Source: Okeania sp. SIO2G5
GTDB taxonomy: Bacteria > Cyanobacteriota > Cyanobacteriia > Cyanobacteriales > Microcoleaceae
Reading direction: 5' to 3'
Length of the DNA: 28,067 nt
NCBI RefSeq assembly: GCF_010672305.1
Contig: NZ_JAAHGX010000014.1
Coordinates: 90,698 to 118,764 of the forward strand
Below, piece by piece: positions 205 through 20,138 of this stretch. The position numbers and the translations under genes are program-made. The stretch's first letter is position 1. Each line of letters begins with the position of its first letter. The notes beneath the pieces are model-generated. The model did no database searches. It worked only from the letters and a program-made list of their open reading frames with translations, and was not told where the DNA came from.

Positions 205-484
205 GAAATCAGAAGAACAACAGCATCCCCAATATCATAAAGATAGACTAATAGTTAACACCCTATTAGCAGAAAAAGATACTGCCTATAACTTAGCAGA
301 ATTAGCAAGACTAAAAATTCGTTATCGAGGTTTTCCTGGGGCAAAAGATATTCAGGAAGACTTAGAGAAAGTATTAGTAAAGTGGGAACTAACTGAAGAA
401 AAGCTCTATGAAAAAACTCGTGAAATTCATCGCAAAGGTCAGGTTTATAAAAAACACAATAACGACCAAGAAGATTGGTTTTAG
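203..484 (+). CDS. small conserved hypothetical protein (93 aa); resembles a small protein family conserved in cyanobacteria (possibly DUF3288-type)
   Basis: Intact ORF of 93 aa. Protein-like composition with motif NLAELARLKIRYRGFPGAKDIQEDL, which I associate from memory with a cyanobacteria-wide small protein family. Not verified by search. Confidence 0.45.
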   Translation: MKSEEQQHPQYHKDRLIVNTLLAEKDTAYNLAELARLKIRYRGFPGAKDIQEDLEKVLVKWELTEEKLYEKTREIHRKGQVYKKHNNDQEDWF

Positions 485-813
485 AAATTTTTTATAATTA
501 TTTAATAGAGTGGTTAAATAAGGTAATAAGCAGTAGGTCTGGTTAGCAATGGAAGTAGAGGTTCGTGAGATTATTGCTGTTTATATGGACTCACGGGATT
601 GAGAAGTCACTAGGCATTTGTAGCAGTCCTTACCTGCTGTAGGTCGTCAATTTGCCTTTCGCTCCGCGACATTAAACGTGTAAATAATGTGTAGTCCGTT
701 ACTGTGAATCGCTACATTTATATAGTTTTTGCAGATAATATCAAATCCGGTTAATTGCACATAAAAAAATTCTCCAATCGTCATAACTACGCTTATCTTT
801 GTAATTCTCTTTC

Positions 814-850
<37 letters not shown>

Positions 851-944
851 AGTTAACCATTCTATAACTGTTTAACCGGACTTGATATAATTTGGCATTC
901 CACTATACCTAAAGTATAATTAATATGAAATACGAAAAATTATG

Positions 945-1330
945 CTACAAATAAAGCATCAGATAAAGCTTCTAAAATCAAGTCCCATCCGGTCACAGAT
1001 ATAATAGTTTTTGGGGTTAATTCTAGTAAGATTTTAGATAATCGCTTTCTGAAAATATCGAGATTTTCAAACAGTTCCCACTTGAATTTTTTTTGAATTT
1101 CTTTCCACAATCTTTCAATGGGATTGACTTGTGGAGTGTAAGGAGGTTGAAATAAGGAGTGTAAGGAGGTTGAAATAAAAGGATGACATTATTGGGAATT
1201 AGGCGATCCATCTATAATGCCGTAATCTGCAAGTCTTACCTGTGAATAGTCTTGGATAGATTCGATTGCTTTTGTTACTAAATCACCAGTAGGTTCGAGA
1301 GAAGGTTTTGCTCCAATTGTGTTGAATGAA
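945..1330 (-). pseudogene. IS630/Tc1-mariner family transposase remnant (C-terminal DDE region), degraded
   Basis: Minus-strand translation gives LFQPPYTPQVNPIERLWKEIQKKFKWELFENLDIFRKRLSKILLELTPKTIISVTGW, the classic IS630 C-terminal signature (PPYSP-LNPIE-LW). The frame is broken by a perfect 23-bp tandem duplication (ggagtgtaaggaggttgaaataa x2, about 1133..1180). The N-terminal part is missing or unrecognisable. Confidence 0.55.
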
Positions 1331-1910
1331 GTAGTTAGATGTCATATAAATTTCCATGTCATATCCTCTCTAATGATGATTATTTGCAACCTGATTTTTA
1401 GCTAATTCATCCTCAATAAACTCAGAAGTTTTACTTCCAACTTTTGGTTGTTTATCTACGTTCTGAAATTATAGTAGTTTAACTTAAAAATGAGACGTTT
1501 TTTCATCTGAAACTCCCTCATAGCAAGAAAGCTTTGTCTCAATCTAAAGTTAAATGACTATAGTGTTGATATGATTCAGGTATTTCATAATGCCAAAAAT
1601 CACAATAGCATATTTTGGACATCCAAATTGAAAATTTAGACCGCTTAGGTATAAATCAATACAGTTCAGTTAAGGATTTTTTTTGGCAGTTCTGTAATCT
1701 CAAGAGCTACTCTAATAGTTCCATACCTTATGAGTTTTATCCCTATTCCCTACTCCCTATTTCCTACTGCCTAAAATTTAATGATTATCTGTTTCACTTT
1801 TTGCGATAAATATGAAACTTTTGGCTTTCATGGATACTAACAAAACTAAATCCAGCTTGTTCCATAATTTCTTCTTTTTTCCATTGCTTAATGTAACTCA
1901 ACTTAAGTTT

Positions 1911-2555
1911 TTATTGAGCTAATATTTCCCCATCTTTCTTAAAAAAATAAGTTTTATCAATGGATTCAATTTCATAATTTTCCCCAATTTTTTCTATCTC
2001 ATGAGAATAAACAATTCCTGTGGGAAGACTTTGTTGATAACTTTTATGTTCTCCTTGAAAACTCAATAGGAATAACCCATCTTGATGCAGATGTTTAGCA
2101 ACATTAATTAATCCCTTAATATCCTCATCAATATCCTTAGTATGATTTCTTAAGTCAGTCCGATCACCTCGTTGACTTATTACCCAAACTCCTCTACTAG
2201 AAACAGCGATATCAAAAGTTTCTTGGAGGTTCATATCATAGATATCTGCCTCTAGCAACTTTCCCCATCCTCCTAATCTCTTTCTGGCAATTTCGAGCAT
2301 TGATAAGGTAATATCTACTCCTGTAAATTCAGCTTCGGGAGCAAGTGGCAATAATTTTTCAGCAAATAATCCTGTTCCTACACCTAATTCAAGTATTTTT
2401 TTATGACCATCTTTCATCAAAGAATAGACTGCATTAGCCATTCCTTGATAATCATAATAGCCTTGGGTCATCAAAAGATCATAATAATCAGTAAAACTAT
2501 CGTAATAATCGGTGATATTAATATATTGACTCATAGTTAATTTTGCAGGAGTCAA
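1911..2555 (-). CDS. class I SAM-dependent methyltransferase (214 aa)
   Basis: Intact ORF. Motif I ILELGVGTGLFAEKL (GxGxG SAM-binding loop) with downstream acidic residue (VDIT), the Rossmann MTase pattern. Confidence 0.8.
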   Translation of the reverse strand: MTPAKLTMSQYINITDYYDSFTDYYDLLMTQGYYDYQGMANAVYSLMKDGHKKILELGVGTGLFAEKLLPLAPEAEFTGVDITLSMLEIARKRLGGWGKLLEADIYDMNLQETFDIAVSSRGVWVISQRGDRTDLRNHTKDIDEDIKGLINVAKHLHQDGLFLLSFQGEHKSYQQSLPTGIVYSHEIEKIGENYEIESIDKTYFFKKDGEILAQ

Positions 2556-2699
2556 GTGCAGTCCCTAATAAATAATTTGAATTTTAGTAACTATAACCAT
2601 GATGATTTGATTGAAAAATCCGTATCAATAAATCAGCTATTTATTTTCTCAATTTGATGCAACTTAACAGGGAATTTGTATCAGACTTAATTTGGATAC

Positions 2700-3110
2700 A
2701 ATTATTTGATTATCTGTTTCACTTTTTGCGATAAACATAAAACTTTTGGCTTTCATAGACACTAACAAAACTAAACCCATCTTGTTCCATAATTTCTTCT
2801 TTTTTCAATTGCTTAATGTAGTTCAACTTAAGTTTTTGTTGAGCTAATATTTCCCCATCTTTCTTAAAAAAATAACTTTTCTCAATGGATTCAATTTCAT
2901 CATTTTCCCCAATCTTTTCTATCTCCTGAGATTAACGAAGTCAGAAGTCAGAAGTCAGAAGTTAACCCACCCCTCGCCCCTCCCCCTCCCAGGAGGGGAA
3001 GTAGGGGATGCGTGAGCAACTCTCCAAAAATATTGCGCCTTAAAAGGCGGGGTTTTAGACCAATATTATTTTGATAAACAATTCCTGTGTGGAAATTTTG
3101 TTGATAACTT
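2700..3110 (-). pseudogene. duplicated fragment of the 3' end and downstream flank of the 1911..2555 methyltransferase gene, split by a MITE insertion
   Basis: 2700..2930 matches 1782..1999 at about 90% nucleotide identity (ttatctgtttcactttttgcgataaa...atctcNtgag). Homology resumes at 3073 (aaacaattcctgtg...ttgttgataac, matching 2003..2045). The 142 bp in between are a dispersed-repeat element. Confidence 0.6.
2931..3072 (+). mobile_element. MITE-like element, family A (heptamer head GAAGTCA x3-4 + G/C-rich palindrome cccctccccctccc/aggaggggaag + ccttaaaaggcggggttttagacc tail)
   Basis: It interrupts the duplicated MTase fragment exactly, with TA present at both junctions (t-TA-acgaag ... ttttga-TA-aacaa). 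A second copy lies in inverse orientation at 14711..14858 and a partial related copy at 27925..28010. Confidence 0.55.
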
Positions 3111-3156
3111 TATAGGTTAGCTATGGGTAATTAGGGTTTGCTGAATAAAGTATGAG

Positions 3157-3385
3157 TAGTAGGGGTAGGAGTCAGGAGTCAGGAGTCAGGAGAAATGGGG
3201 AATTTAGAGGAGGTAGGAGTAAGAATTGTCCCTCAATTTTTTTGTCCGAAGGTTTGCCTTTTATGCTAACTTTTTGAGGGTTTTAGACTAAAACAAGCGC
3301 ATTTTTTGGGAATCGAAGAAAGCTCAAACCTTTACCTGTCAATGGTCTTAAAATTAATTGGCAAACCCTAATTATAAATATCTGG
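3157..3385 (+). repeat. dispersed repeat family B (about 230 bp), copy 1
   Basis: Shares ggagtcagg...gtcaggagaaatgggga-at-tagagg-ggtag...aattgtccct-gattttt...aacctttacctgtcaatgg with 24612..24840. Confidence 0.6.
3166..3194. repeat. heptanucleotide tandem repeat (GGAGTCA)x3 (reverse complement of CCTGACT)
   Basis: Direct reading: ggagtcaggagtcaggagtcagg. Confidence 0.85.
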
Positions 3386-3404
3386 AAATCAAAGAATTAA
3401 TTTA

Positions 3405-3610
3405 ATATTTGGAAAAGGTAGGCAATAGGTAATTTCAGTTATCAGTTATTAGTAACTCTTCAATAAGGAGGCAAGAAAATACGGAATTCTCTTTTCTCTT
3501 GGTCAATTGGATATGGGGAGGTCTCCTCGTCACCCCACCCTACGGGAAGCTCCGAAGCTATACTGCTTTTTATCCCCTTAAAAGGCTATGCTTTATCAAC
3601 ATATTTACTT
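3405..3610 (+). repeat. composite small dispersed repeats (tcagttatcagttat-family followed by ttggatatggggagg...cccaccctacgggaagctccg family and a ccttaaaagg...ctttatc tail)
   Basis: 3421..3500 matches 11697..11768 (+) and the reverse complement of 14560..14702. 3508..3565 matches 22413..22545. Confidence 0.55.
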
Positions 3611-3793
3611 AACATAAAACTTGACAAAATAGACAAGTTATATTCAAGCCTTTAAAAGTTTTTTTTCAGAGAAAAAGTGTATTCAAAGGTATATTTGTTT
3701 TGATAACTTAAGTAGCTTTTCCTATCTATATGATTCTTTCTCCCTTCTCCCCTGCTCTCCACAAGGTTTTCAGGAGTTCCTTATAAGGGATAG

Positions 3794-3835
3794 CTTAAAA
3801 GGGGAGGCTTTAGACCAGGATTTTTCGGTCAAAAG
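3794..3835 (+). repeat. gcttaaaaggggaggctttagaccaggatttttcggtcaaaag module, 3' flank of the giant gene
   Basis: Near-identical to 11769..11812 (ccttaaaagaggaggctttagaccaagatttttcggtaataaag) at the 5' flank of the same gene, in the same orientation. Related ccttaaaagg-N-gg-g-tttagacc modules occur at 3038..3061, 14735..14760 (rc) and 22546..22575. Confidence 0.6.
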
Positions 3836-3909
3836 AATATCGTTGATTAGTAAATGCACAAATAATTTTATCCATCTACTTAGCACAATAATTTGATTGA
3901 AAAAAATCA

Positions 3910-6900
3910 TCAATTTCCTGCAAATTTTTGATAATCTTCTAGTAACCAATGAGGCAGTTTAGTTATATCTTCGATTCGTAATTGTTCAGAACGACAATAT
4001 AACATTGCTGCTAATAAATAATTTATAGTTTTTGGTGCTTCTATTCCTTTGGCAAGTTGAGCAGCTAACTGTCGTAAAAATTCTTGTTCGCTTTCTATTA
4101 AAGATTCATTTTGAATTTTGCTATTGAGTAATGCTTGATAACCTTTACCCATTTCACCCAAGTAAAAAGTTTCTAGTTTTTGAGGTTCTAAATTTATCCA
4201 AAAATCAGCCATTTGTTTTCTGATTTGACGCAATTCTTGAACCACAGATTCATCAGATGGGTCAATATAGTAAAGATTCACACTGCCCAATAATTGATTG
4301 ATAAATTTTTGCTGTGGAATGTCTAAATTATCTGTTTGATTTGCTGTTAAAACTACATTTTTTTCTGGTCTAACTTCAGCAGTTGTGACTGGAGAATTTT
4401 CTGGTAGATGAGGGGATTTAGATTTAAAAGCTTTTTCCAACTTCTGGGCAACTTCTCGACTTTCAAATATCTGTTTATAATCATCTATCAACCACTGAGG
4501 TAAACGATTTTTAGCATCTCTGACTAACATTTTGCTTGGAGGAAAATATAACATTGCCCCTAAAAATGTATTGATAGCTTTTGGATTAGTTAAACCCATA
4601 CTTGTCTCAGCTAATTCTTTGAGAAATTTCTGTTCATCTTCGGTTTGAGGTTCGTTTTGAATTCCACTTTTTAATAAAGCTTGATATGCTTGTCTAATTT
4701 TGCCTTGATAAGTATTTTCTAATTCTTTGGGAGCTACAGCTAACCAAAAATCAGCTATTTGTTTACGAAGTTGACGTAATTCTTCTATTAAAGATTGGTC
4801 AGTAGGATCGATTTCGTAGAGATTCACACAACCAATCAAACGATTGATAAATTCAGAAGTTAAAGAATTTTTATCTGTAGATTCTATAGTTTTTGGCGCG
4901 TGAATATTTTGCCATTCTTGGAATAATTCTTGAAATAATTTACCTATCTGTGTAGAGTAACTAAGACTGTCTAAAAATGAAGGGTTTTGCTCAATTTTTT
5001 CCAGAATTTCTTGCCGCTTTTGTTGACGTAACTGAGGATTAGTTGCTAGTTTCACTACTAAATTAATATAACTCTCTTCCCCATCAGCAATAAGATCGTC
5101 CATCTTTATCTCTCTGAGCAATGCTGATGCTTGTCGAAACCTTAAAGCATTTCCTTCAACAACTACTGGTGGAACTCCGACCATGAGTGGATCGACCAGA
5201 GAGGTTGCACCACCGTAAGGGAAAGAGTCTAAATAAATATCCGCTAATTTCAAACATTCTTTGATATCTGCTTGACTTGGTAATGCTTTAATTACGACCA
5301 AGCGCTTACTGTCGATACCATGACGTTTCAAAACAGACCGCATCTGTTTGATAAAAGGGGCAAATCGATAAGAATTAGTCCAGTTAGGATTAAAAGGATA
5401 CAAGACTAAAATAGAATTGGGCACTTTTGCTAGGATTTTGGCCCAAGTCTCCCGCATCTCCGGTATAATTTTGTAGAAATTAGCTCCAGAAATAAATATG
5501 GTGGTTTGGTCGGTTGCCCCCCAACTAGAGCGAATTGGTTTTACTCCTGAGGGGGGTTCGGCGATCGCATATCGGAAACAGAGTCCGGAATCTTCTAGGT
5601 TGGCCAGTTTTTCTGTATAATGTTCTTGGGTTGTCTCTGTTGGTGCAGTAATTTTACCGGAGATATAGTAGTCTATGGAGTGCATCCCGGTGGTAGTGGG
5701 AGAATTGATGGATGTAATTTGTATTCTGGCCAGTTTGTGTATTGCCAGCAAGGTAGAATTTTTGATAGTAGCAGTAATATTAGAGCCAATAAATAGAATA
5801 TCAAGGTTGTCGTTGCGAATAATTTGTGCTTGACTTTTCAATTCTTCTGGTAGTTGTAGAAATTTATCGGCGTGACTTTGGCAATATTTTTCTAAGGGAT
5901 GTCCGTTAGATTTTATTGCATAGAGAAATATCTCAAATTTACTCCGGTCTAAATGTTCAAATACTGGGAGTAAGGAATATGTTTCTGTTTGGGGAGAATA
6001 ATGATCTTTGAGAATTCCCAAGCGAATTTTTGGGCGGTTAAATGGGCGGTCGTTCATCTTATAATCTAACTCTAACCCACGATTTTTTAGAGCAAATTCT
6101 ATAATTTCTGCACGCTTGATGTAGAGATTTTTTAAATTGGGCGTAGTAGTAAAATATAGAGGAATCCAATTAGCATTTTCCACAAAAAACCAGGCGATAA
6201 CTTGCCATAATTCTGAGTCTGGATTAGTGGATATATTGTTATGCACATAATTCAACCATCCTACTAGAAAATTATGATAATTATCTGTTTCTCCTATTTC
6301 TTGAAAAAGTTGGGGAGAGGCAAACATAAATTTTAAATAGTCTGTAGCAAACCAGCTAGGTATGGGAGCTTTTTCGTATTTAATTCCTAGTCGATCTGCT
6401 CTTTGATAAAGCATCCCTGCCAATAAATACTGAATGGCTAAAGGTTGGTTAAATCCTTTGGCAAAATTAGCTTTTATTTTGTCTACAAATCTTTGTTCTA
6501 TTTCAGTTAAAGTTTCGTCTTTTATACCACTTGCTAATAATGCTTTGTGTGCTTGACCAAATGCTCCCAAGTAAACATTTTTGAGTTCTTCCGAAGTTTG
6601 AATATTCAGCCAGCATTCTGCAATTTGCTTTCTAATTTCTTGCAATCTAACTAATGCTGATTCATCCAACTGGTTTTGCTGATAAAGCTGAATATTCTGA
6701 TTTATTTCTGTCAGAGATGGTAATAAATTAGTTTTAACAGTAGGAACAACTTTTTGTTGTTCTATAGACTGAGGTTTTGGAGAATTGACTGACTGATTTG
6801 GTGTCTTAATTAAATCTGTTTCCCCACTGACCAAAACAGAGATAAGTAAATTAACTACAGAAGGAGATTGACTACATTTAAGACCTTCACGAATTTGAGC

Positions 6901-9900
6901 GATCGCTCCATTAGTATTTCCTCCTTTCAACATAGAAGCAGCCATTTTTATTGCTTCAATTGCATAATGTTCCCTAGCTTTATCAGATAATTTTTCTGCC
7001 ATTTTTGTTGGTAAATAAGTTTGAGTAATTTCTATAGCTTTCCGAGCATTTTCTATATTACCGCCAGACTGCATTAAGCGGGAAGTTTCCGAGGAGGAAT
7101 GTAAACGGAAACAAGCCAAAATTTCCGGTTCAAACCAAATAGGATAAAAAGCAGTTATTCGCTTCCAAATTTCCCAATCAGCCGCCGAATCTGCCTGAGA
7201 ACAAAAACCTCCTAAATTTTCATAAACCTTACGTTTTACTACCATCCCCACAACTTGAATTCGTTGTTCAATAGTAATTTTTTCTAAGAAATTTTCTATA
7301 ATACCTGGAGTTTTTCTTTCCAACACAGACAAATACTTTTTCTGGTCATATTCATCTATATAATAGTGGCGACAAAATGCTGCTCCTACTGTTGTATTTT
7401 GTTCAATTCCACGACGTAATTTTTCATAAAAACCAGGCAAGACAAAATCATCATCATGGAGTAGATGAATCCAATATCCTTTTGCTCTTTGTAGACAAAT
7501 ATTAAAAATCGGAGCTTGACCAATATCTTGTGGAAAATGTCGATAAAAATTAACTCTTTCTCCCCCTACCTTTCGGACAATTGCTTCTATTTCAGCTTGA
7601 ATTTTATGGTCTGGACAATCATTTACGACTTCTATCTGCATTTCTTCTAGGGCAGGAGCTTGTTGCAATACACTTTTGAGAGTTTGCTCTAAATATTTCG
7701 CCTTTTTATAAGTAGGAATCATCACAGACCAAAACGGTCGATGGTTATTATCTGACAATGGATTAATTTCTGGATATTCAATACCCATTTGATTATTTTT
7801 GAGAGTAGCTATTTGAGGAAATTTTTCTATACCTACTTCTAGTTGTTGTTCTCGTCTTACCGTTGCCCAAATCCAAGGTTTAGCAGATTTTAAAGAAACT
7901 AAATTAAACCCCGCTGCCATTAATAAATCTTTTAATTTTTCTTCAGTATAAGCATTGCCAGAAAAATAATATTGTTGATCTTTTGCCCCTTCCTCATCAA
8001 AATTTCCTAAACTTTCAGCGCTGTGGTCATGTACTTTAATTCTCAAATATCCTCCCGGTTTCAAAACCCGAAATATTTCTCGGAAATAACTTTTGACAAT
8101 AGAAATAGAACGGATGTGCTGAAAAACTATCGTCGAAAAAACAAAGTCGTAATTTTCATCAGCTAACTGTTGCAAATCATCGCCATTATTAATATATAGC
8201 TCTCCATTTTGTTTCCCATCAGCTAAATATTGTCGGGCAAACTGAATCATATTTTCCGAAATATCTACACCATCTACCCGTGCAAATTTTTCTCGCAAAT
8301 ACTTAATAAGACGACCAACACCACAACCGATTTCTAATACTTTCCACTCTGGTTTAACAGGGATACCTTCCAGAATTTGTGGCACCCAAATTTCCATTAA
8401 CTCTTTCCTAACTTGCTTTTTTTGTCCTGGAGAAAGCGTCTCCATTCCACTGTAAGCTAAGACTCGCTCAAAAATAGCTTCATCTAAAGAATTAACATTC
8501 CTAAAATAGCGTTGTATTTCTAACTGCCCGTGATTTATTTGAAATTGAATTTTGCCTAAATTTTTCCTATCTTCCATACCAGATAATTCCTTTGATTTAA
8601 GCTGTATCTCTGACTCTCCATGATTTATTGGAGATGAAATTTCTCCTGACTTTTTCCTATCTTCCACACTAGAAAATTCCTTTGATTTAACCTGCATCTC
8701 TAAATCTCTATGATTTATTGGAAATGGAATTTCTCCTGACTTTTTCCTATCTTCCATAGCAGATAATCTCTCTACTTTAATCCGATTAAAAGTCTGGATA
8801 AATACATCAGTCATAATCTTAGCCATTCGAGACCAAGAAAACTTTTGAGCTTGTGCTAAACCAGCAGTTATTAATTGTTGCCGAACTTCTGATTTTTGCA
8901 CTTCACCCAAAGCATTTACCAATCCATTAACATCATTATCATTAATATATAAAGCTGCTCTTCCTGCCACTTCTGGAATTGAAGCATTTTTACAAGTAAT
9001 AACTGGACAACCACAAGCCATTGCTTCTAAAATAGGCAGTCCAAAACCTTCATATTTTGATGGATAAACTAAAGCCATCGCTCCAGAGTAAGCCGATTTT
9101 AATTCTTGGTCACTCAGTTGTAATAAATGAATTTTACTATCTGAAATATATTTGCTTAATTCTGGCTCTACTTTTCTATTTCCCCCTATACAAACAATCT
9201 CAAATTCTGCGGATTTTTTGAATTTAGCAAAAGCTTGAAAGAATAACATAGTATTTTTATAACCTAGCCAACCTATTCTCTCACCCACTATCAGAAAGTA
9301 TGGGCGATGAATGTTATATTTCAACTGAAAATTAGTAACTTCTTGAGGGGTCGCTCTAGAAAATTTAGGTTCAATTCCGCAGGGAGCTACTCTGATAGAA
9401 TTTGCGGATATTTGAGGAAAATATTTTACTAAATCACGAGCTGTATTTTCTGAAATTGAAATATAAGAAATTGCCTGTTTAATACTACGATGTTTTTCTT
9501 GCCATGAAGGGTTATCAAGATTTTTAGCTAAAACTTCTGGAATCATATCATAAGCCATAAATATAGATGGCGTTAAGATAGGTGTTGTGTAATAAGTAGA
9601 AATGAAAATATCAGCATTTTCTTCATCACATATTTGCTGCAAAATTTGACGGTCTGCATCTATTCTGCCGTAATTATATCCAGGGATAACACGATATTTT
9701 ATGCCGGGAATTTTTGGTGCAGTTTTTGCTCTGTCAAGCACTAAAATATTTTTAGCAAAACTATCTTTTGACCATACTTCCAACAAAGACTTCCAGACAC
9801 GGGCAATACCTGTATTATTTATTTGGAAAAATACACCATCAATAAGAACCTTGAAATCTAATAGCTGCCAATTTTTCGATTTTCTTTCGGCAATATTTTC

Positions 9901-11583
9901 AGAGTCTAACTCAGTTAACTGCTGCTGATTTTTTAGTTTCTTTTCTGTCACTTTTTCATAGTCTACCTCAGTTAAAGATTCTTTCCTTTTCTCAGGTTTA
10001 TATCTACCTATCCTAAATATGCTGTGAAACTCGGAATTTGATAAACTTTTCTCTGTTAATAAGTGCAGAGATTCTCCATCCGAACATAAATTAAGTTTAA
10101 ACTTTTGAGCAATTACAGATAATGCTTTTTTGTTAAATATAGAAATGTGTTGACCTTCTTCCAGAGCATAATACCACCAATCATTAGGACGAGGATTATC
10201 AGGTGGCAATAGCTTTGTACTAAATAAAATATTTCTAGTTTGTTGCAGTATCTTCTCAATTTCTGCCAGAGGATTTATGAAATGTTCAAATACTTCAAAA
10301 GCTGTGACTATTTCATATTTTTGTTCCCTATTTATTTCTCCTTCCCATCCTTGAGAAAAAATATTTTGGCAATATTTATCATATCCATAAAAATCTAATC
10401 CTAAGTCACGCATCATCCGGACAAATAAACCATACCCACACCCATAATCTAGGAATTTATCATTGGCATTAAAGAAGTTGAGAATTAAATTTTCTGTAAT
10501 CAAAGAAAAATTTTGATTTCTAGAAACCAAACCCACATCACTACTAGCAATTGCCTCTGTATAAGCTTCCCCTAACCAGTAAGGATTTTCCGTTTGTACA
10601 AAACCACAATTAGAACATTGAAAATAGTCAACATTATATTTATTTAAAACCTTAGCATTATCAAATTTGTGAGATATTGAACCACAAACTTTGCAATGAA
10701 CATTTTGAATTTGTAAACCACCACTAAACATTGTTTTTTCTGTAAAATTGTCTGCTGGAATATTACGAATAATAGAGGGAGGATGAGTCAGAGGAAAAAT
10801 CATTTCCTCCACAGACATATTGGCAAACTTATTAATACTTGAAGTGTGAGTAGCACCTTGACCAAAACCAATATTAGAAACTAAATTAACCTTGGGTAAA
10901 ATAGTTAAACCATGATAATTCCAACAGGCAAATGTCCAAGCATAAGCCCAAGAATTAAACCCTTGATAATTCTTCTGAAAAATCTCCGACCAATATTGAA
11001 CTGCCCTACTATTTTGTAGAATATTTTCTAACCACTTACTACCTCTAAGCTTCGACCATAATTGCATTTGATTATCATAATTTTTCCATGCTCTTCGCCA
11101 AGTTGCCCAACCCCAACAATGGGGATAGCGAGAGAAATAATAACTAGACTCTATTGGATTATTACCAAACTGAAAATTATCTCCAGATATAGCCATAATC
11201 CTCTCATCATTTCGATATCTTTCTAATAACTCTTCACAAAACCTAAAAAAAGTTAAATGAGGTACACAGTCATCCTCCAAAATAATTGCTGATTCTACCA
11301 AACTAAAAACCCAATTTAATCCATTATAAATACGCTCTCTACAACCTAAATTCTTCTCAGAATAATTAGTCAAAACTTCACAATTCCAATCAACCTGATC
11401 GATTATCTTTCTTGCTGCCATACACCTCTCAACTTCTCCATATCTATCGAGGCGAGGAGCATCAGCTATTACAAATAATTGAAGAGGCTTTACTTGACGA
11501 ATTGCCTCAAATACTTTTGCCGTTGTATCTGGTCGATTAAATATAATTATAACTACAGGAGTTGTTAATTGAAATTGAGTCAT
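3910..11583 (-). CDS. giant multidomain glycosyltransferase/methyltransferase (2557 aa): GT-A + Zn-ribbon SAM-MTase + GT4 + SAM-MTase + GT2 + GT41 (OGT-like) + repeated helical modules
   Basis: Single uninterrupted 7674-bp ORF; residue numbers are approximate. N-terminal GT-A-like domain with EDD motif (ILEDDCVP, res 1-300). CxxC...CxxC zinc ribbon, then MTase motif I LDYGCGYGLF (res 300-520). GT-B/GT4 domain with EX7E signature EGFGLPILEAMACGCPVI (res 570-960). 3 x 30-aa tandem repeat (res ~929-1018). Second MTase, motif I VLEIGCGVGRL (res ~1030-1230). GT2 domain with SVMIPTYKKAKYLEQTLKSVLQQ and HDDD (res ~1280-1530). C-terminal domain (res ~1790-2210) aligns by eye with GT41 catalytic-domain landmarks (RPKIRLGIL...FEIFLYA; VPNSILVLYPF; ADIYLDSFPYGGATSLVDPLMVGVPPVVVEG). 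Three paralogous ~125-aa modules at res ~1628-1760, ~2230-2350 and ~2420-2557. Confidence 0.9.
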   Translation of the reverse strand: MTQFQLTTPVVIIIFNRPDTTAKVFEAIRQVKPLQLFVIADAPRLDRYGEVERCMAARKIIDQVDWNCEVLTNYSEKNLGCRERIYNGLNWVFSLVESAIILEDDCVPHLTFFRFCEELLERYRNDERIMAISGDNFQFGNNPIESSYYFSRYPHCWGWATWRRAWKNYDNQMQLWSKLRGSKWLENILQNSRAVQYWSEIFQKNYQGFNSWAYAWTFACWNYHGLTILPKVNLVSNIGFGQGATHTSSINKFANMSVEEMIFPLTHPPSIIRNIPADNFTEKTMFSGGLQIQNVHCKVCGSISHKFDNAKVLNKYNVDYFQCSNCGFVQTENPYWLGEAYTEAIASSDVGLVSRNQNFSLITENLILNFFNANDKFLDYGCGYGLFVRMMRDLGLDFYGYDKYCQNIFSQGWEGEINREQKYEIVTAFEVFEHFINPLAEIEKILQQTRNILFSTKLLPPDNPRPNDWWYYALEEGQHISIFNKKALSVIAQKFKLNLCSDGESLHLLTEKSLSNSEFHSIFRIGRYKPEKRKESLTEVDYEKVTEKKLKNQQQLTELDSENIAERKSKNWQLLDFKVLIDGVFFQINNTGIARVWKSLLEVWSKDSFAKNILVLDRAKTAPKIPGIKYRVIPGYNYGRIDADRQILQQICDEENADIFISTYYTTPILTPSIFMAYDMIPEVLAKNLDNPSWQEKHRSIKQAISYISISENTARDLVKYFPQISANSIRVAPCGIEPKFSRATPQEVTNFQLKYNIHRPYFLIVGERIGWLGYKNTMLFFQAFAKFKKSAEFEIVCIGGNRKVEPELSKYISDSKIHLLQLSDQELKSAYSGAMALVYPSKYEGFGLPILEAMACGCPVITCKNASIPEVAGRAALYINDNDVNGLVNALGEVQKSEVRQQLITAGLAQAQKFSWSRMAKIMTDVFIQTFNRIKVERLSAMEDRKKSGEIPFPINHRDLEMQVKSKEFSSVEDRKKSGEISSPINHGESEIQLKSKELSGMEDRKNLGKIQFQINHGQLEIQRYFRNVNSLDEAIFERVLAYSGMETLSPGQKKQVRKELMEIWVPQILEGIPVKPEWKVLEIGCGVGRLIKYLREKFARVDGVDISENMIQFARQYLADGKQNGELYINNGDDLQQLADENYDFVFSTIVFQHIRSISIVKSYFREIFRVLKPGGYLRIKVHDHSAESLGNFDEEGAKDQQYYFSGNAYTEEKLKDLLMAAGFNLVSLKSAKPWIWATVRREQQLEVGIEKFPQIATLKNNQMGIEYPEINPLSDNNHRPFWSVMIPTYKKAKYLEQTLKSVLQQAPALEEMQIEVVNDCPDHKIQAEIEAIVRKVGGERVNFYRHFPQDIGQAPIFNICLQRAKGYWIHLLHDDDFVLPGFYEKLRRGIEQNTTVGAAFCRHYYIDEYDQKKYLSVLERKTPGIIENFLEKITIEQRIQVVGMVVKRKVYENLGGFCSQADSAADWEIWKRITAFYPIWFEPEILACFRLHSSSETSRLMQSGGNIENARKAIEITQTYLPTKMAEKLSDKAREHYAIEAIKMAASMLKGGNTNGAIAQIREGLKCSQSPSVVNLLISVLVSGETDLIKTPNQSVNSPKPQSIEQQKVVPTVKTNLLPSLTEINQNIQLYQQNQLDESALVRLQEIRKQIAECWLNIQTSEELKNVYLGAFGQAHKALLASGIKDETLTEIEQRFVDKIKANFAKGFNQPLAIQYLLAGMLYQRADRLGIKYEKAPIPSWFATDYLKFMFASPQLFQEIGETDNYHNFLVGWLNYVHNNISTNPDSELWQVIAWFFVENANWIPLYFTTTPNLKNLYIKRAEIIEFALKNRGLELDYKMNDRPFNRPKIRLGILKDHYSPQTETYSLLPVFEHLDRSKFEIFLYAIKSNGHPLEKYCQSHADKFLQLPEELKSQAQIIRNDNLDILFIGSNITATIKNSTLLAIHKLARIQITSINSPTTTGMHSIDYYISGKITAPTETTQEHYTEKLANLEDSGLCFRYAIAEPPSGVKPIRSSWGATDQTTIFISGANFYKIIPEMRETWAKILAKVPNSILVLYPFNPNWTNSYRFAPFIKQMRSVLKRHGIDSKRLVVIKALPSQADIKECLKLADIYLDSFPYGGATSLVDPLMVGVPPVVVEGNALRFRQASALLREIKMDDLIADGEESYINLVVKLATNPQLRQQKRQEILEKIEQNPSFLDSLSYSTQIGKLFQELFQEWQNIHAPKTIESTDKNSLTSEFINRLIGCVNLYEIDPTDQSLIEELRQLRKQIADFWLAVAPKELENTYQGKIRQAYQALLKSGIQNEPQTEDEQKFLKELAETSMGLTNPKAINTFLGAMLYFPPSKMLVRDAKNRLPQWLIDDYKQIFESREVAQKLEKAFKSKSPHLPENSPVTTAEVRPEKNVVLTANQTDNLDIPQQKFINQLLGSVNLYYIDPSDESVVQELRQIRKQMADFWINLEPQKLETFYLGEMGKGYQALLNSKIQNESLIESEQEFLRQLAAQLAKGIEAPKTINYLLAAMLYCRSEQLRIEDITKLPHWLLEDYQKFAGN
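4955..6215 (-). other. GT41 (O-GlcNAc-transferase / SPINDLY-like) catalytic-type domain within the giant ORF
   Basis: Motifs RPKIRLGILKDHYSPQTETYSLLPVFEHLDRSKFEIFLYA, ETWAKILAKVPNSILVLYPF and ADIYLDSFPYGGATSLVDPLMVGVPPVVVEGNALRFRQASALL correspond to the conserved OGT C-terminal blocks. Confidence 0.7.
8531..8800 (-). repeat. in-frame 90-bp x3 tandem repeat inside the giant ORF (30-aa units MEDRKKSGEI-FPINH--LE-Q-KSKE-S)
   Basis: tgatttattgga-atg-aatttctcctgactttttcctatcttcca recurs with an exact 90-bp period (unit starts 8531, 8621, 8711). The period is a multiple of 3 and preserves the frame. Confidence 0.85.
8704..9874 (-). other. GT4 (GT-B fold, group 1 glycosyltransferase) domain within the giant ORF
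   Basis: EX7E-type motif SKYEGFGLPILEAMACGCPVI and the upstream Rossmann-like half VLIDGVFFQINNTGIARV. Confidence 0.75.
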
Positions 11584-11597
11584 TTTTAGTTTAATAG

Positions 11598-11640
11598 GAA
11601 AGAAGGAAGAAGGAATAAGGAAGAGATAAGAAGGAATAAA
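11598..11640. repeat. heptanucleotide repeat (GAAGGAA)n immediately 5' of the giant gene start (TTCCTTC on the coding strand)
   Basis: Direct reading: gaaagaaggaagaaggaataaggaagagataagaaggaataaag. Confidence 0.8.
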
Positions 11641-11696
11641 GTAGATAAATCTACAGATAAATCAAGTTCAACTAAAGATTTGTTTAAGAAGGAGAA

Positions 11697-11812
11697 AGTC
11701 ATTTCAGTTATCAGTTATCAGTACCTCTGTAATAAAGAGGCTTTAAATACGAAATTATCTTTTTTTTTCCTTAAAAGAGGAGGCTTTAGACCAAGATTTT
11801 TCGGTAATAAAG
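11697..11812 (+). repeat. tcagttatcagttat-family + ccttaaaagaggaggctttagaccaagatttttcgg module, 5' flank of the giant gene
   Basis: Same two modules, in the same order and orientation, as at 3421..3500 and 3794..3835 on the 3' flank. Confidence 0.6.
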
Positions 11813-12204
11813 TTGATAGCTGATATCTCACTACTGAATCCTGAGAAACTTTTAATTATGGAAAATATTTCCATTATTTTTTCTCCTTTCAAAGTAATCA
11901 AAACTGATAGCTGACTGCTGAGTGCTAAATGCTTATAAGCTAATAAAGCTGATAGCTGATACCTGAGTGCTGAATGCTTATAAACTTTTAATTATGGAAA
12001 ATATTTCCATTATTTTCCCCTCCTTTCAAAGTAATAAAAACTGATAGCTGAATGCTGAGTGCTAAATGCTTATCAGGTAAGAAAGCTGATAGCTGATACC
12101 TGAGTACTGAATGCTGAGAAACTTTTAATTCTGGGAAATATCTCAATTACTTTTTCCTCCTCTAAAGGTAATAAAGCTGAATCCTCACCGCTGAATGCTT
12201 AACC
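11813..12204. repeat. intergenic tandem repeat, about 136-bp unit x 2.9
   Basis: Units at 11813..11947, 11948..12084, 12085..12204. Each carries two gctgatagctga-N-ctgagtgct-aatgcttat half-sites and a near-palindrome atggaaaatatttccat. Confidence 0.85.
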
Positions 12205-12325
12205 AATGGATAATTGATAATTATTTTGCTTGGGAATCTTTGTACAAAAAGTGAAAAATTTTATATTTTTATTATCTAAAAGAAATAGTTGATCTACAAG
12301 GTTTAAAAATTAAATTCATTATCCA

Positions 12326-12856
12326 TTATCCATTATCCATTAATGACGTCGCTTTATATAAAATATCTTGATGAGACCGTTCCAGTAAAGTCTCATTGAT
12401 AGAATTAGATAATACTGCAACAGGTTCATATAATGGTCTTAAAAAAGAGTCAATTGCTTTTCTATCTCCATAACGTACTTCTATCAACATAAACTTTGGT
12501 TGGTATTTATCAAAATCAATACCTTGCAACACATCTAATTCAAAACCTTCAACATCCAACGAAAACAAATCTATATTTTCAACTCCATACTTATCAAGAA
12601 TTGCAGTTAGTGTCCTTACTCGTACATTAATTTCATAACTATGATTAATATTTTGAACTTGACAACCCGCTTTTAAATGAACCTTTTTTTCCTCCTCTGA
12701 CTTCATAGCTCCATCAACAAAAGACATAAGATTACAATAGTACATTTTTATATAATCCTGACCATAATTAAAAGGAACCAAAGCATAATTTTCAACCGCT
12801 GACTTAGACCGATTAATTCTACATTTTTCTGCTAACTCTGGTATTGCCTCTATCAA
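12326..12856 (-). CDS. FkbM-family SAM methyltransferase, C-terminal portion; reading frame continues upstream to an in-frame TGA at 12890..12892
   Basis: Motif IDLFSLDVEGFELDVLQG is the FkbM (Methyltransf_21) signature. The frame is open from 12889 and continuous with the upstream ORF across a single TGA (FIEAGANDGISQSNT*YFEKYKNWQGILIEAIPELAEK). Confidence 0.7.
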   Translation of the reverse strand: MIEAIPELAEKCRINRSKSAVENYALVPFNYGQDYIKMYYCNLMSFVDGAMKSEEEKKVHLKAGCQVQNINHSYEINVRVRTLTAILDKYGVENIDLFSLDVEGFELDVLQGIDFDKYQPKFMLIEVRYGDRKAIDSFLRPLYEPVAVLSNSINETLLERSHQDILYKATSLMDNG

Positions 12857-12889
12857 AATACCTTGCCAGTTTTTGTACTTCTCAAAATA

Positions 12890-14038
12890 TCAAGTATTAC
12901 TTTGACTTATCCCATCATTCGCCCCAGCTTCAATAAAAAATCCATTTTCCCAAGTTAAGTAAGAAGCAAGTTTAAGATCGAGCTGATTCAAAGCATAAGA
13001 TTTTCTCATTAAATCAGGTTTTATTTCTAATGCCTTTTGCTGATAAATATTAGCCTCAAATAATCTACCCTGTTTCTGTAAAATATTACCAATACTCCAA
13101 TATATACCTGCCGACTTTGGTTCAAGTGCAATAACTTTTTGATAGTAAGCGTTCGCCTGTTCTAGCTGACCTTTTTGGGAATAAATTTTGCCTAGTTTTG
13201 CATAAACTATTGCCAAGTTTGGTTGTGATTTTATTGCTTTGTTATAAGAACGAATAGACTTTTCAATTTGACCTTTAGAATAATAAAAATCCCCTAATCC
13301 CTGATAAGCTTCAGCAGCATAAGGTTGATTTTTAATAGCTTCGTAATAAGCCAAAATCTGATTATCTTGACTGTCTAGATTTTTATTTTTTCTTTTAGCT
13401 CTTGCTTCACCTTGACCCAAAGAAATACCCAAGCAAGACTGCTTTTGACTAGGTAATTTTAAATCCGATAAAAAATCATCACTTTGAAAAAAAATAGAAG
13501 TACAGCTTTTATATCTTTGACTAGGAACTAAACCATAAAAATCAATACGTTTAAATCCTTGATGATGAAGCAAAATTACTCCCCTATCATTTTCCTCTCT
13601 ATCCGAATTATCAAATACTATCCAGCCATTTTTAGATAATTTTTCACCACATATTTCAGCACATTTAACTCGCTCAATTCCATCAATAATAATCACATCA
13701 AAATCACCATTATCATAATTCTGAATTTCCTCAACATATCTTTGCCTATCTTCCCTCAAAACTAGCTTCACATTTTGAGGAATATAAGTTGAAACATTGA
13801 CAAAATAATCAGGATTATGTTCTACAGAAACCACCTGCTTAACTCGGTCAGCGTACCAAAAAGTTGACTGTCCGCTCCCATATTCAAATACTCGAAAATC
13901 GCTCTTTAACTTATCCTCAATAAATTCAATAGCAGGATAAGAATACCAAGGAAGAGGATGATAATTATAATCTATAGATTTTCCTTCTTTTAATGAATTG
14001 AGCCATCCTGAAGTTTCTAGATAGTTCAAATTAGTCAT
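12890..14038 (-). CDS. TylF/CmcI-like class I methyltransferase domain + TPR repeats + start of the FkbM methyltransferase domain (382 aa ORF ending at in-frame TGA)
   Basis: N-terminal FEYGSGQSTFWYA...DVIIIDGIERV...NGWIVFDNSD resembles the macrocin-O-MTase/CmcI-type fold. Central TPR-like repeats (AEAYQGLGDFYYSKGQIEKSIRSYNKAIKSQP; AIVYAKLGKIYSQKGQLEQANAYYQKVIALEP). Ends FFIEAGANDGISQSNT, which is the FkbM N-terminal GAN-G motif. Confidence 0.7.
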   Translation of the reverse strand: MTNLNYLETSGWLNSLKEGKSIDYNYHPLPWYSYPAIEFIEDKLKSDFRVFEYGSGQSTFWYADRVKQVVSVEHNPDYFVNVSTYIPQNVKLVLREDRQRYVEEIQNYDNGDFDVIIIDGIERVKCAEICGEKLSKNGWIVFDNSDREENDRGVILLHHQGFKRIDFYGLVPSQRYKSCTSIFFQSDDFLSDLKLPSQKQSCLGISLGQGEARAKRKNKNLDSQDNQILAYYEAIKNQPYAAEAYQGLGDFYYSKGQIEKSIRSYNKAIKSQPNLAIVYAKLGKIYSQKGQLEQANAYYQKVIALEPKSAGIYWSIGNILQKQGRLFEANIYQQKALEIKPDLMRKSYALNQLDLKLASYLTWENGFFIEAGANDGISQSNT

Positions 14039-14114
14039 ATTATTTGAGCATTAGTATTTAGTGTGTTGAAAACTAAAGGAAACTGATATAGCGTGTTTCA
14101 ACTTATTGAGGTTA

Positions 14115-14215
14115 GTTCATTAATTGATAATGGATAACCACCTCTGGTTAAAACCGTTCTTGATTGAATATAAGGAAATATTATTTATTTTTTTCCTCTT
14201 TGATTGCTATGTTAT
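14115..14215. repeat. dispersed repeat (cattaattgataatggataa...ggttaaaaccg...attgaatat-aggaaatattat family)
   Basis: Matches 22333..22412. Partial copies at 12205..12240 and 28019..28067. Confidence 0.6.
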
Positions 14216-14559
14216 AGAGCCATCAAAAGATTAACAATAAATTTATATATAAATAATTTTGTCTGCTTACTTAAATTTTTTTCTTATTTTCTATTCCCTA
14301 CTCCCGCGTAAAAAAGGAATTTTGTACCTCACGCTTCTTGGTAATTACTATAGAAAAAACTTCTACATCCAATTACCAACTTGATAATACAAAATAACAA
14401 TAGTATAAATCCATAACTCTCAGCTAGCTATTAAAGAAAGAAAGCAAAGAAACAAGAGTTTACTTAAGATAACCTATCAGATAGCCAAAAATTATGAGAA
14501 CTACTCATTGAAACTACCATAGACATCTCCAGAAAAGAGATAGTAAGGAGTAAGCGGTA

Positions 14560-14702
14560 GGGATGAAGTCTCCCTTCCCTCCAGTCCCCAAGAGAACGCC
14601 ATATCCATCAGACCAACAAAAAAGAGAACTCCGTATTCTCTTGCCTCCCTATGACAGCAAGTACTGATAACTAATAACTGATAACTGAAATGACTGTTTA
14701 CT
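14560..14702 (-). repeat. dispersed repeat, reverse-complement copy of the tcagttatcagttat...ggaggcaagaaaatacggaattctct...ttggatatgg family
   Basis: The reverse complement of 14560..14702 aligns with 3415..3530. Confidence 0.6.
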
Positions 14703-14710
14703 TAATTACC

Positions 14711-14858
14711 GAACAACATTATCAAAATAATTGGGTCGCGCAACCCCACCTTTTAAGGCGAAATATTCTTGAAACCTTGCTCAAATCCCCTACTTCCCCT
14801 CCACCGGAGGGGGAGGGGCGAGGGGTGGGTTAACTTCTGACTTCTGACTTCTGACTTC
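14711..14858 (-). mobile_element. MITE-like element family A, second copy (inverse orientation)
   Basis: Its reverse complement reads gaagtcagaagtcagaagtcagaagttaacccacccctcgcccctccccctcc-ggtggaggggaagtagggga...cgccttaaaaggtggggtt...attattttgataa, co-linear with 2935..3085. Confidence 0.6.
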
Positions 14859-14975
14859 AAATCCCCGTTACAAAAATAACTTCTGACTTCTAACTTTTGA
14901 GTTTTGACTTCAAATCCCCGTTACAAAAATAACTTCTAACTTTTGACTTTTGAGTTTTGACTTTTGACTTTAATC
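14834..14975. repeat. heptamer-based tandem repeats (CTTCTGA/TTTTGAC) with an embedded ~52-bp duplicated unit caaatccccgttacaaaaataacttct
   Basis: Direct reading. The 52-bp unit is at 14858..14885 and again at 14910..14937. Confidence 0.75.
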
Positions 14976-15057
14976 TACTGTGATATTATATTAGAAATCA
15001 GTTAACATAAGTTAATATACCAGGATTAAAAAATAGTCCCAATAGTATAAAAAGATA

Positions 15058-15063
15058 AGAAGG
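15058..15063 (+). promoter_or_regulatory. Shine-Dalgarno sequence (aaggag) for ftsH, GTG start 10 nt downstream
   Basis: aaggagcaaccccaGTG; the ORF begins at 15074. Confidence 0.5.
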
Positions 15064-15073
15064 AGCAACCCCA

Positions 15074-19598: not shown

Positions 19599-20138
19599 AT
19601 GAAAATTATACAAAGTCGCATAGCAAAGGTTTTACTTGCAAGTATTATCGCTCTCTTAACAATTTTTACATCTGTTGTGAATCCTCAAGGTATCTCTGGT
19701 GTTCTATTTGCTCAGAAACCCAATGGAGAATTGTCATACTATAGCTATAGTGGTTTGCCAGACCGTAATAACTTTAACAACAATGGTAATGAAAGGGTAA
19801 TATCTAGCGGTTGGAATATTTACAGCAAGATTTTTTCAGGAGGTTCTGGTGTTCTATTTGCTCAGAAATCCAATGGAGAATTGTCATACTATAGCTATAG
19901 TGGTTTGCCAGACCGTAATAACTTTAACAACAATGGTAATGAAAGGGTAATATCTAGCGGTTGGAATATTTACAGCAAGATTTTTTCAGGAGGTTCTGGT
20001 GTTCTATTTGCTCAGAAACCTAATGGAGAATTATCATACTATAACTATAGTGGCTCGCCAGACCTTAATAACTTCAACAACAATGGTAATGAAAGGGTAA
20101 TATCTAGCGGTTGGAATATTTACAGCAAGATTTTCTAA
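19599..20138 (+). CDS. secreted protein (179 aa) made of a signal peptide plus three 50-aa tandem repeats
   Basis: N-terminus MKIIQSRIAKVLLASIIALLTIFTSVVNPQG (positive N-region, hydrophobic core). It is followed by 3 x GVLFAQKPNGELSYYSYSGLPDRNNFNNNGNERVISSGWNIYSKIFSGGS. Coding repeats 1 and 2 differ by a single nucleotide. Confidence 0.75.
   Translation: MKIIQSRIAKVLLASIIALLTIFTSVVNPQGISGVLFAQKPNGELSYYSYSGLPDRNNFNNNGNERVISSGWNIYSKIFSGGSGVLFAQKSNGELSYYSYSGLPDRNNFNNNGNERVISSGWNIYSKIFSGGSGVLFAQKPNGELSYYNYSGSPDLNNFNNNGNERVISSGWNIYSKIF
19695..20138 (+). repeat. 150-bp x 3 near-identical coding tandem repeat
   Basis: Unit starts at 19695, 19845, 19995. Copies 1 and 2 differ at one position (cagaaaCccaatgg vs cagaaaTccaatgg); copy 3 has about 8 differences. 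Confidence 0.9.

Follow-up and report, generated by a model that had tools for sequence, protein, structure and literature searches.

Glycosyltransferases of family GT41 (OGT, SPINDLY and NGT) are defined by the helical domains on the acceptor side of their active sites as much as by their catalytic fold. To our knowledge, only two kinds of such domain have been described so far, the tetratricopeptide repeat (TPR) domain and the all-α domain (AAD). Residues of the NGT AAD bind the acceptor peptide (PMC10507012). Among other small helical domains that are fused to enzymes, effector-associated domains (EADs) have been proposed to act as adaptors that bridge the components of conflict systems homotypically (PMC7159879). 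Here we analyze a 28,067-nucleotide stretch of the cyanobacterium Okeania sp. SIO2G5 (contig NZ_JAAHGX010000014.1, positions 90,698 to 118,764; hereafter the window), in which a single open reading frame (ORF; window 3910..11583, minus strand) encodes a 2557-amino-acid protein whose GT41 domain is bracketed by three copies of a helical module, with M1 before it and M2 and M3 after it. We propose, with a probability of roughly 0.55, that these modules represent an undescribed cyanobacterial domain with positional subtypes, in which M1 is a helical arm of the GT41 enzyme, whereas M2 and M3 dock onto a partner that does not vary.

The original prediction, which was made from the DNA alone, held that three paralogous segments of ~125 amino acids lie on either side of a GT41-like domain, one before and two after it. 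Both the paralogy and the arrangement were confirmed. When each segment was masked in turn and compared with the remainder of the protein by BLASTP, M2 and M3 were 49.6% identical over 129 amino acids (E = 4e-40), M1 and M3 were 40.7% identical over 135 amino acids (E = 2e-27) and M1 and M2 were 34.2% identical over 161 amino acids (E = 2e-23), while all further internal matches had E > 0.1. A three-way alignment contains 37 invariant columns and reproduces the consensus proposed at the outset. The modules are longer than first thought, at ~135–145 amino acids as judged by a 60-sequence profile. Run against the six translated frames of the window, this profile detects exactly three copies, and a search for extra diverged copies in the window or in neighboring genes yielded none. 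DNA identity is 65.7% for M2 and M3, 60% for M1 and M3 and 54% for M1 and M2, compared to ~50% for shuffled controls. The similarity of 65–70% that had been noted at the DNA level is thus reached by M2 and M3 at its low end, and with the module boundaries first drawn the figure is 63.5%. All three modules lie in the 3′ third of the gene, and the protein ends two residues past M3 (Table 1). Fragments identical to this protein have been deposited from Okeania sp. SIO2H7 (P0004 and P0008).

Table 1. Domains and segments of the 2557-amino-acid protein, with their positions in the protein and in the window
Feature	Residues	Window (strand)	Basis or remark
Methyltransf_23	367-498		Pfam
GT4 domain	~761-905		Pfam
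Methyltransf_11	1083-1181		Pfam
GT2	1286-1436		Pfam
Module M1 (pre-GT41 subtype)	1623-1765	6289..6717 (-)	Profile E = 3e-55
GT41 unit	1766-2228	4900..6288 (-)	Helical linker, then GT-B domain
Conserved helical linker of GT41 unit	~1766-1852		
GT-B catalytic domain of GT41 unit	~1853-2228		
GT41 (PF13844), best stretch	2017-2203		Pfam, 104.6 bits (cut-off 25)
Module M2 (inner post-GT41 subtype)	2237-2381	4441..4875 (-)	Profile E = 2e-61
M2-M3 linker, low-confidence	2382-2420	4324..4440 (-)	pLDDT <50 at model residues 790-821
Module M3 (C-terminal-most subtype)	2421-2555	3919..4323 (-)	Profile E = 3e-60
Constant 3′ block (last GT41 helix, M2, linker, M3)		3913..5000 (-)	Windowed nucleotide identity, BLASTN

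The domain between the modules is a genuine member of GT41, since it matches PF13844 above the cut-off and has a GT-B fold that is closest to OGT, SPINDLY or NGT. By sequence, Arabidopsis SPINDLY is its closest relative of solved structure (E = 2e-31). The segment GANFYKIIPE aligns with SFNNLAKITPK of SPINDLY, with the lysine of the KIxP motif retained, and this lysine (position 439 of the 958-amino-acid segment modeled below) is near-invariant in a 49-sequence alignment. We take the lysine in the motif ...N-x-x-x-K-I-x-P to be the nucleotide-phosphate-binding residue equivalent to OGT K842.

The modules are a previously undescribed, non-catalytic, all-α domain family of ~140 residues. An AlphaFold2 model of M2, built from a 60-sequence alignment, has nine helices of irregular length (predicted local distance difference test score [pLDDT] 91.6; predicted template modeling score [pTM] 0.83), which bears out the expectation that the modules are helical. 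Equally, they are not TPR-like, as had been suggested: none of 60 diverse module instances matches any Pfam TPR family, the module lacks the regular right-handed superhelix of paired antiparallel helices that characterizes TPR domains, and Foldseek gives template modeling (TM) scores of only 0.17–0.23 to TPR proteins. As a positive control, the same tool matches TPRs strongly in neighboring genes. No Pfam domain was assigned to the three module segments in the scan of the full protein. With hmmscan, no Pfam family scored above its cut-off for M1, M2 or M3 (searched at E ≤ 10), and every family was matched by at most two of the 60 instances (E ≤ 0.1). NCBIfam yielded nothing for the modules, a profile search of PDB sequences gave a best E value of 0.027 and a fold search of the PDB with the module matched no solved structure. 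The statement that the modules belong to no named domain therefore stands for Pfam, NCBIfam and the PDB, the latter both by sequence and by fold. The literature on GT41 and cyanobacteria that we found concerns the TPR-type Ogt and contains nothing on this domain.

Several candidate assignments were considered and rejected. TPR or Sel1-like repeats were excluded by the lack of Pfam TPR matches among the 60 instances and of any fold match. VMAP-M1 (PF19963) matched M2 with 20.5 bits (cut-off 25; E = 7.7e-4), one of only two matches among the 60 instances, which we attribute to chance. The NGT AAD was rejected as a homologue on the basis of both sequence and isolated fold, although an analogy of position remains and is discussed below.

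To define the distribution of the domain, we compared a 10-sequence module profile with 1.84 billion representative proteins using HMMER, which retrieved 493 cluster representatives (50% identity) at E ≤ 1e-3 and 272 at E ≤ 1e-10. A locus scan with a 3-sequence alignment and one genome per species identified 79 loci, nearly all in filamentous cyanobacteria, including Okeania, Trichodesmium erythraeum IMS101, Dapis, Microcoleus, Kamptonema, Limnoraphis, Nostoc and Oscillatoria. The family is essentially restricted to cyanobacteria; the exceptions are one "Actinomycetota" metagenome-assembled genome and one contig labeled "uncultured bacterium." An "uncultured bacterium" contig (L047) contains two adjacent ORFs of ~610–620 amino acids (1667-3532 and 3655-5484), each consisting of a module followed by ~470 amino acids; from module and length alone, the pair looks like tandem minimal module–GT41 genes.

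The association with GT41 is recurrent, as the search for co-occurrence called for by the original prediction revealed. Among 261 proteins that were fetched, and with M denoting a module and G the GT41 core, the architecture MG accounts for 99, MGM for 23, MGMM for 24, MGMMM for 17 and MGMMMM for nine. In every protein with an N-terminally complete GT41 region, exactly one module directly precedes the GT41 core, and in minimal proteins of ~605 amino acids the module (4–145) and GT41 (146–605) adjoin without a gap. The number of modules after GT41 varies from zero to four among relatives. N-terminal to the M–GT41 cassette are diverse enzymes: GT2, GT4, several types of methyltransferase, sulfotransferase and fucosyltransferase-like domains. 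However, GT41 is not a requirement. Modules are also found at the C terminus of GT4 and GT2 enzymes without a GT41 domain (GT4-M, GT4-MMM and GT2-M), and a profile search found 236 stand-alone two-module proteins of 270–400 amino acids in Synechococcaceae and Cyanobium, which are annotated, where named at all, as hypothetical proteins. Because the domain follows GT4 and GT2 without GT41 and also stands alone as pairs, the suggestion that it is an acceptor-recognition unit is too narrow and at best partly supported.

The modules fall into classes that follow their position. We labeled 570 instances by position and took for each the best match in a different protein. Modules before GT41 had their best match in other pre-GT41 modules in all of 131 cases, inner post-GT41 modules in other inner modules in all of 87 and C-terminal-most modules in their counterparts in 61 of 73. 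These subtypes are kept across cyanobacterial orders. M1, M2 and M3 thus belong to three old classes of paralogue that are conserved by position, and are not recent tandem duplicates.

Although all three modules had been said to stand where TPRs stand in canonical OGTs, this is true of M1, which is directly N-terminal to the GT41 core, and not of M2 and M3, which are C-terminal and sit on low-confidence linkers. In a 958-residue model of residues 1600–2557 (pLDDT 87.8; pTM 0.67), low confidence is confined to model residues 1–18, 633–638 (between GT41 and M2) and 790–821 (between M2 and M3). M1 is modeled as helices spanning H25 to H154 with pLDDT ~85–95. As the pTM corresponds to approximately one rigid body of ~610 of the 958 residues, and no low-confidence linker separates M1 from GT41, M1 is probably packed rigidly on the catalytic unit, to which its linkage is obligate. 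In fold comparisons, the model scored 41.3 with Thermobaculum OGT (460 residues aligned), 38.6 with Xanthomonas OGT (454), 38.2 with SPINDLY (478) and 34.3 with AaNGT. The alignment with AaNGT covers 512 of 622 residues and is thus longer than those with the bacterial TPR-type OGTs and SPINDLY; for comparison, the authors of the AaNGT structure reported that its superposition on SPINDLY and XcOGT was limited to 453–467 residues. M1 and the helical linker (1766–1852) precede the GT-B domain in the model, and this longer alignment suggests that together they partly fill the space occupied by the AAD. Since the isolated module does not retrieve NGT, the resemblance is one of position and not of homology.

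How do the modules evolve relative to the enzymes they accompany? Among true orthologues, all parts of the gene are conserved alike, at 94–99% nucleotide identity in Okeania SIO3B5 and O. hirsuta and 78–88% in Trichodesmium and Dapis; the modules are approximately as conserved as the catalytic domain. The giant gene nonetheless lies in a hypervariable locus between conserved flanks (window 3913-16915). Five other Okeania-type loci (L011, L013, L063, L066 and L079) occupy the same chromosomal position. On one side, the FtsH flank (window 15074-16915) is 92–97% identical in L011, L013 and L066 and 89–97% identical across the four loci that capture it; on the other, the downstream methyltransferase flank (window 1911-2555) is 87–93% identical to the alternative loci. 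The giant genes at these loci range from 1953 to 3498 codons and differ in the enzyme domains they encode.

Within the gene, the modules after GT41 form a constant tail, whereas the body of enzymes to which it is attached can be exchanged. Compared to the five divergent alleles, M1 is ~60% identical in nucleotides and 42–56% in amino acids, and the GT-B domain 64–67% and 59–61%, respectively, whereas M2, the linker and M3 together are 89–97% identical in nucleotides and 74–97% in amino acids. M2 in particular is 93–96% identical between Okeania alleles whose GT41 domains are at 64–67%, and both the M2–M3 linker and M3 are at 89–97% in all five. A sixth, more distant locus (L052) shows a weaker form of the pattern, with M1 at 60% and the GT-B domain at 67% versus M2 at 88%, the linker at 73% and M3 at 85%. 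Third positions of tail codons for identical amino acids are 90–97% identical. The switch is abrupt: in 20-codon windows compared with the five alleles, nucleotide identity is 40–62% at residues 2120–2179, changes at 2180–2200, is at least 83% from residue 2200 and is mostly 90–100% from residue 2220. With BLASTN, a block of 95.4–95.6% identity starts at window position 4876 in L063 and L066. The same is seen independently in Microcoleus, where, relative to the reference locus L020, four loci (L037, L046, L048 and L050) have M1 at 57–63% and GT41 at 66–68%, versus 84–93% for the three post-GT41 modules. M1 does not share in this constancy: it changes along with the catalytic domain that it precedes, and at a slightly higher rate.

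One explanation of this mosaic is that the modules are inert spacers or degenerate TPR-like repeats and that the 3′ conservation results only from recombination at the boundary of the locus. The constant block does start in the last GT41 helix, just upstream of the disordered GT41–M2 linker, as recombination near a domain boundary predicts, and the modules are helical, acidic and devoid of catalytic motifs. However, inert spacers would not be expected to keep position-specific subtypes across cyanobacterial orders, to share near-invariant residues (R, W, Y, G and P-x-W) among 60 diverse instances, to match the conservation of the catalytic domain in the Okeania, Trichodesmium and Dapis orthologues or to make up a large stand-alone family that contains little besides modules. 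With the absence of Pfam TPR matches and the irregular helix lengths added, we consider this explanation very improbable.

A stronger alternative, though in our judgment still an unlikely one, generalizes the original suggestion of acceptor recognition and holds that all modules bind a single polymeric or repetitive acceptor or product, such as a glycan chain or a repetitive protein, with additional copies adding avidity or processivity and the copies on GT4 and GT2 enzymes targeting the same substrate. M1 occupies the position of the TPR domain and the AAD, both of which bind acceptors in characterized GT41 enzymes (PMC10507012), the beads-on-a-string arrangement of zero to four copies is typical of substrate-binding modules and members of several glycosyltransferase families, encoded in small glycan clusters, carry the domain. 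Yet the post-GT41 modules remain 84–97% identical in nucleotides while the catalytic set, and with it presumably the product, is swapped at 60–68%, which would require the acceptor to be invariant. The stand-alone two-module proteins, moreover, carry no enzyme domain, and we see no conserved aromatic or polar clusters beyond the near-invariant residues of the apparent fold core. That M2 and M3 read a variable acceptor is disfavored because the post-GT41 copies are near-constant while M1 and GT41 diverge; for these two modules, acceptor recognition is less likely than a constant docking role.

We therefore return to the proposal that the positional subtypes of a domain that travels with glycan-building enzymes do different jobs. 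M1 is an integral part of one clade of GT41 enzymes, in the place taken by the TPR superhelix in OGT and SPINDLY and by the AAD in NGT, and would serve as a helical arm that both supports and partly defines the acceptor side of the active site. M2 and M3 may be flexibly tethered docking modules that link interchangeable glycosyltransferase "alleles" to an invariant partner. This partner might be a scaffold, another enzyme that bears modules or TPRs, or a carrier or acceptor that does not vary; a variable glycan is unlikely. Some of our observations weigh against this proposal. Homologous recombination may just happen to resolve in the conserved 3′ part of this hypervariable locus, in which case the constant tail would carry no information on a shared partner. 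The NGT residues that touch the peptide belong to the C-terminal part of the AAD, whose counterpart by sequence position would be the helical linker rather than M1. We looked for charge complementarity between pre- and post-GT41 modules and found none, as all subtypes have a pI of ~5.4–5.7. In addition, most module-bearing genes have no second module-bearing gene within 10 kb, and any homotypic network would thus act in trans.

A bolder version of the docking proposal, which we offer tentatively and think rather improbable as it stands, is that the post-GT41 modules form a constant "plug," dockerin- or EAD-like, that ties recombining glycosyltransferase cassettes to an invariant scaffold for glycan assembly or export. 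If so, filamentous cyanobacteria would switch the chemistry of their surface glycans by recombination at a domain boundary while keeping the docking interface, and the enzyme-free pairs of modules in picocyanobacteria would represent the scaffold or adaptor of this system in its free form.

The genomic neighborhood is consistent with a glycan-tailoring assembly that is rich in potential protein–protein contacts. Genes adjoining module-bearing genes encode methyltransferases (among them C-methyltransferases and TPR-FkbM and TPR-GXM-like fusions), GT4, GT2 and GT61 enzymes (including a TPR-GT61), TPR proteins, NDP-sugar enzymes and FtsH. Genes for GT4-M and GT2-M proteins lie in small clusters of sugar-nucleotide, methyltransferase and glycosyltransferase genes. 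No ABC transporter or Wzx/Wzy genes were found among the 10 neighbors scanned within 10 kb of sampled GT41-type genes. On two picocyanobacterial metagenome contigs, genes for stand-alone two-module proteins (L082 8001-9191 and L083 1649-2839) are accompanied by genes for an HlyD/AprE-type membrane-fusion protein, an ABC exporter of ~990 amino acids with a cNMP-binding domain, a protein of 259–281 amino acids without assignment and a 977-amino-acid GT2+GT4 protein, which suggests that here the two-module protein is linked to a secretion or glycosylation cluster.

It is also possible, although we consider it quite unlikely, that the modules are homotypic coupling adaptors, distantly related or analogous to EADs, that assemble separate glycosyltransferases and two-module proteins. 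EAD2 (PF19956) is matched by 14 of 117 stand-alone relatives at E ≤ 0.1, compared to at most two for other families, and one relative (P0306) scores 25.2 bits against a Pfam cut-off of 23.8 (E = 1.9e-5). EADs are small all-α domains that are fused to diverse enzymes and present as several paralogues per genome (PMC7159879). Similarly, single genomes encode several module-bearing proteins at separate loci: seven Microcoleus genomes each contain an MGMMM gene and an MG gene, and one 7.6-Mb contig encodes three module-bearing proteins (P0110, P0067 and P0156). However, neither the modules in the window nor the 60 GT41-associated instances match EAD2, the EAD2 profile of 81 positions covers approximately half a module and the 14 matches are not independent, since the 117 stand-alone proteins are interrelated. 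The module-bearing genes examined also adjoin no NTPase, vWA-MoxR or caspase genes, and the sole peptidase_C14/NACHT gene is ~8 kb away, in L084. We regard the similarity to EAD2 as a lead rather than a sign of membership.

Other features of the giant gene and its surroundings were noted. Of the 29 Pfam families that match the protein, the 25 best leave residues 1 to ~290 (window 10714-11583) uncovered; this region, which contains an EDD motif near residue 103, may be a further glycosyltransferase-like domain. The Methyltransf_11 segment (window 7822-8520) has three or four tandem matches in alleles L011, L013, L063 and L079; in L013 these are at 4761-5453, 5562-6260 and 6369-6964, and the 1352-amino-acid L013 protein matches Methyltransf_11 in three stretches, which shows that the variable part has gained extra copies of this domain. 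A peptide of ~27 amino acids (EDRKKSGEI..INH..E.Q.KSKE.S) is repeated three times in tandem between the GT4 domain and Methyltransf_11 (residues ~955–1040; window ~8464-8721). Since nucleotide alignments to the orthologues L001, L002 and L004 break at window 8600-8714, the number of these repeats may vary. Just upstream of the start codon is a 137-bp tandem repeat (window 11803-12175; 2.7 copies, 87% matches), and as BLASTN finds the unit at many more offsets in L001 (~3570-5183) and L066 (~2491-3412), its copy number varies between genomes.

Further upstream, a 382-amino-acid ORF with methyltransferase and TPR regions (window 12890-14038, minus strand) lies head to tail with a 176-amino-acid FkbM-methyltransferase ORF (12326-12856, minus strand). 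Since Trichodesmium L004 has a single 569-amino-acid ORF with TPR and FkbM (3564-5270), the pair in the window may have been split by a frameshift or a sequencing artifact. Between the glycosyltransferase locus and a group of housekeeping genes (ThiD, FtsZ and ComFB) are a 179-amino-acid ORF with a tachylectin-like match (window 19599-20138, plus strand; PF14517, E = 1.5e-17) and a 606-amino-acid ORF with no Pfam match (20352-22172, minus strand).

With its ~500 clusters, the family seems to warrant an entry in Pfam or InterPro. If M1 has the role we propose, the module would be a third, cyanobacteria-specific helical partner of GT41, and a mobile one, since it also occurs with GT4, with GT2 and alone. 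As a domain of ~140 amino acids that models well, it could provide a handle on multi-enzyme glycan assembly in cyanobacteria, on surface-glycan diversity in bloom- and mat-forming genera such as Trichodesmium, Okeania and Microcoleus and on the role of a "hypothetical protein" that is widespread among picocyanobacteria of the sea and of fresh water.

How does this domain compare with those described? Unlike the TPR domains of human OGT, XcOGT, TtOGT and Arabidopsis SPINDLY, the module has no 34-residue repeat, and unlike the TPRs of OGT and SPINDLY it can also follow the catalytic domain, be attached to GT4 or GT2 enzymes or stand by itself. It resembles the AAD of HMW1C-like NGTs (ApNGT, 3Q3E; AaNGT, 8P0O) in being, according to the model, a non-TPR all-α domain that is N-terminal to a GT41 GT-B fold, and the greater extent of the alignment with AaNGT is in keeping with this likeness; it differs in that sequence similarity to NGT is limited to the C-terminal Rossmann lobe. 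The NGT AAD is also, as far as we know, a single, non-repeated and non-mobile domain. Like EAD2, the module is small, all-α, fused to varied enzymes and present in several copies per genome, and its picocyanobacterial stand-alone subfamily shows recurrent weak sequence similarity to EAD2, but its context is glycan biosynthesis rather than NTPase, vWA-MoxR or caspase conflict systems. Surface-glycan loci of the O-antigen type are hypervariable clusters between conserved flanks. By analogy, deeply diverged sets of enzymes are swapped here between FtsH and a methyltransferase. Unlike in O-antigen-type loci, the boundary between variable and constant parts falls inside a gene, near a domain boundary, with two copies of the new domain on the constant side.

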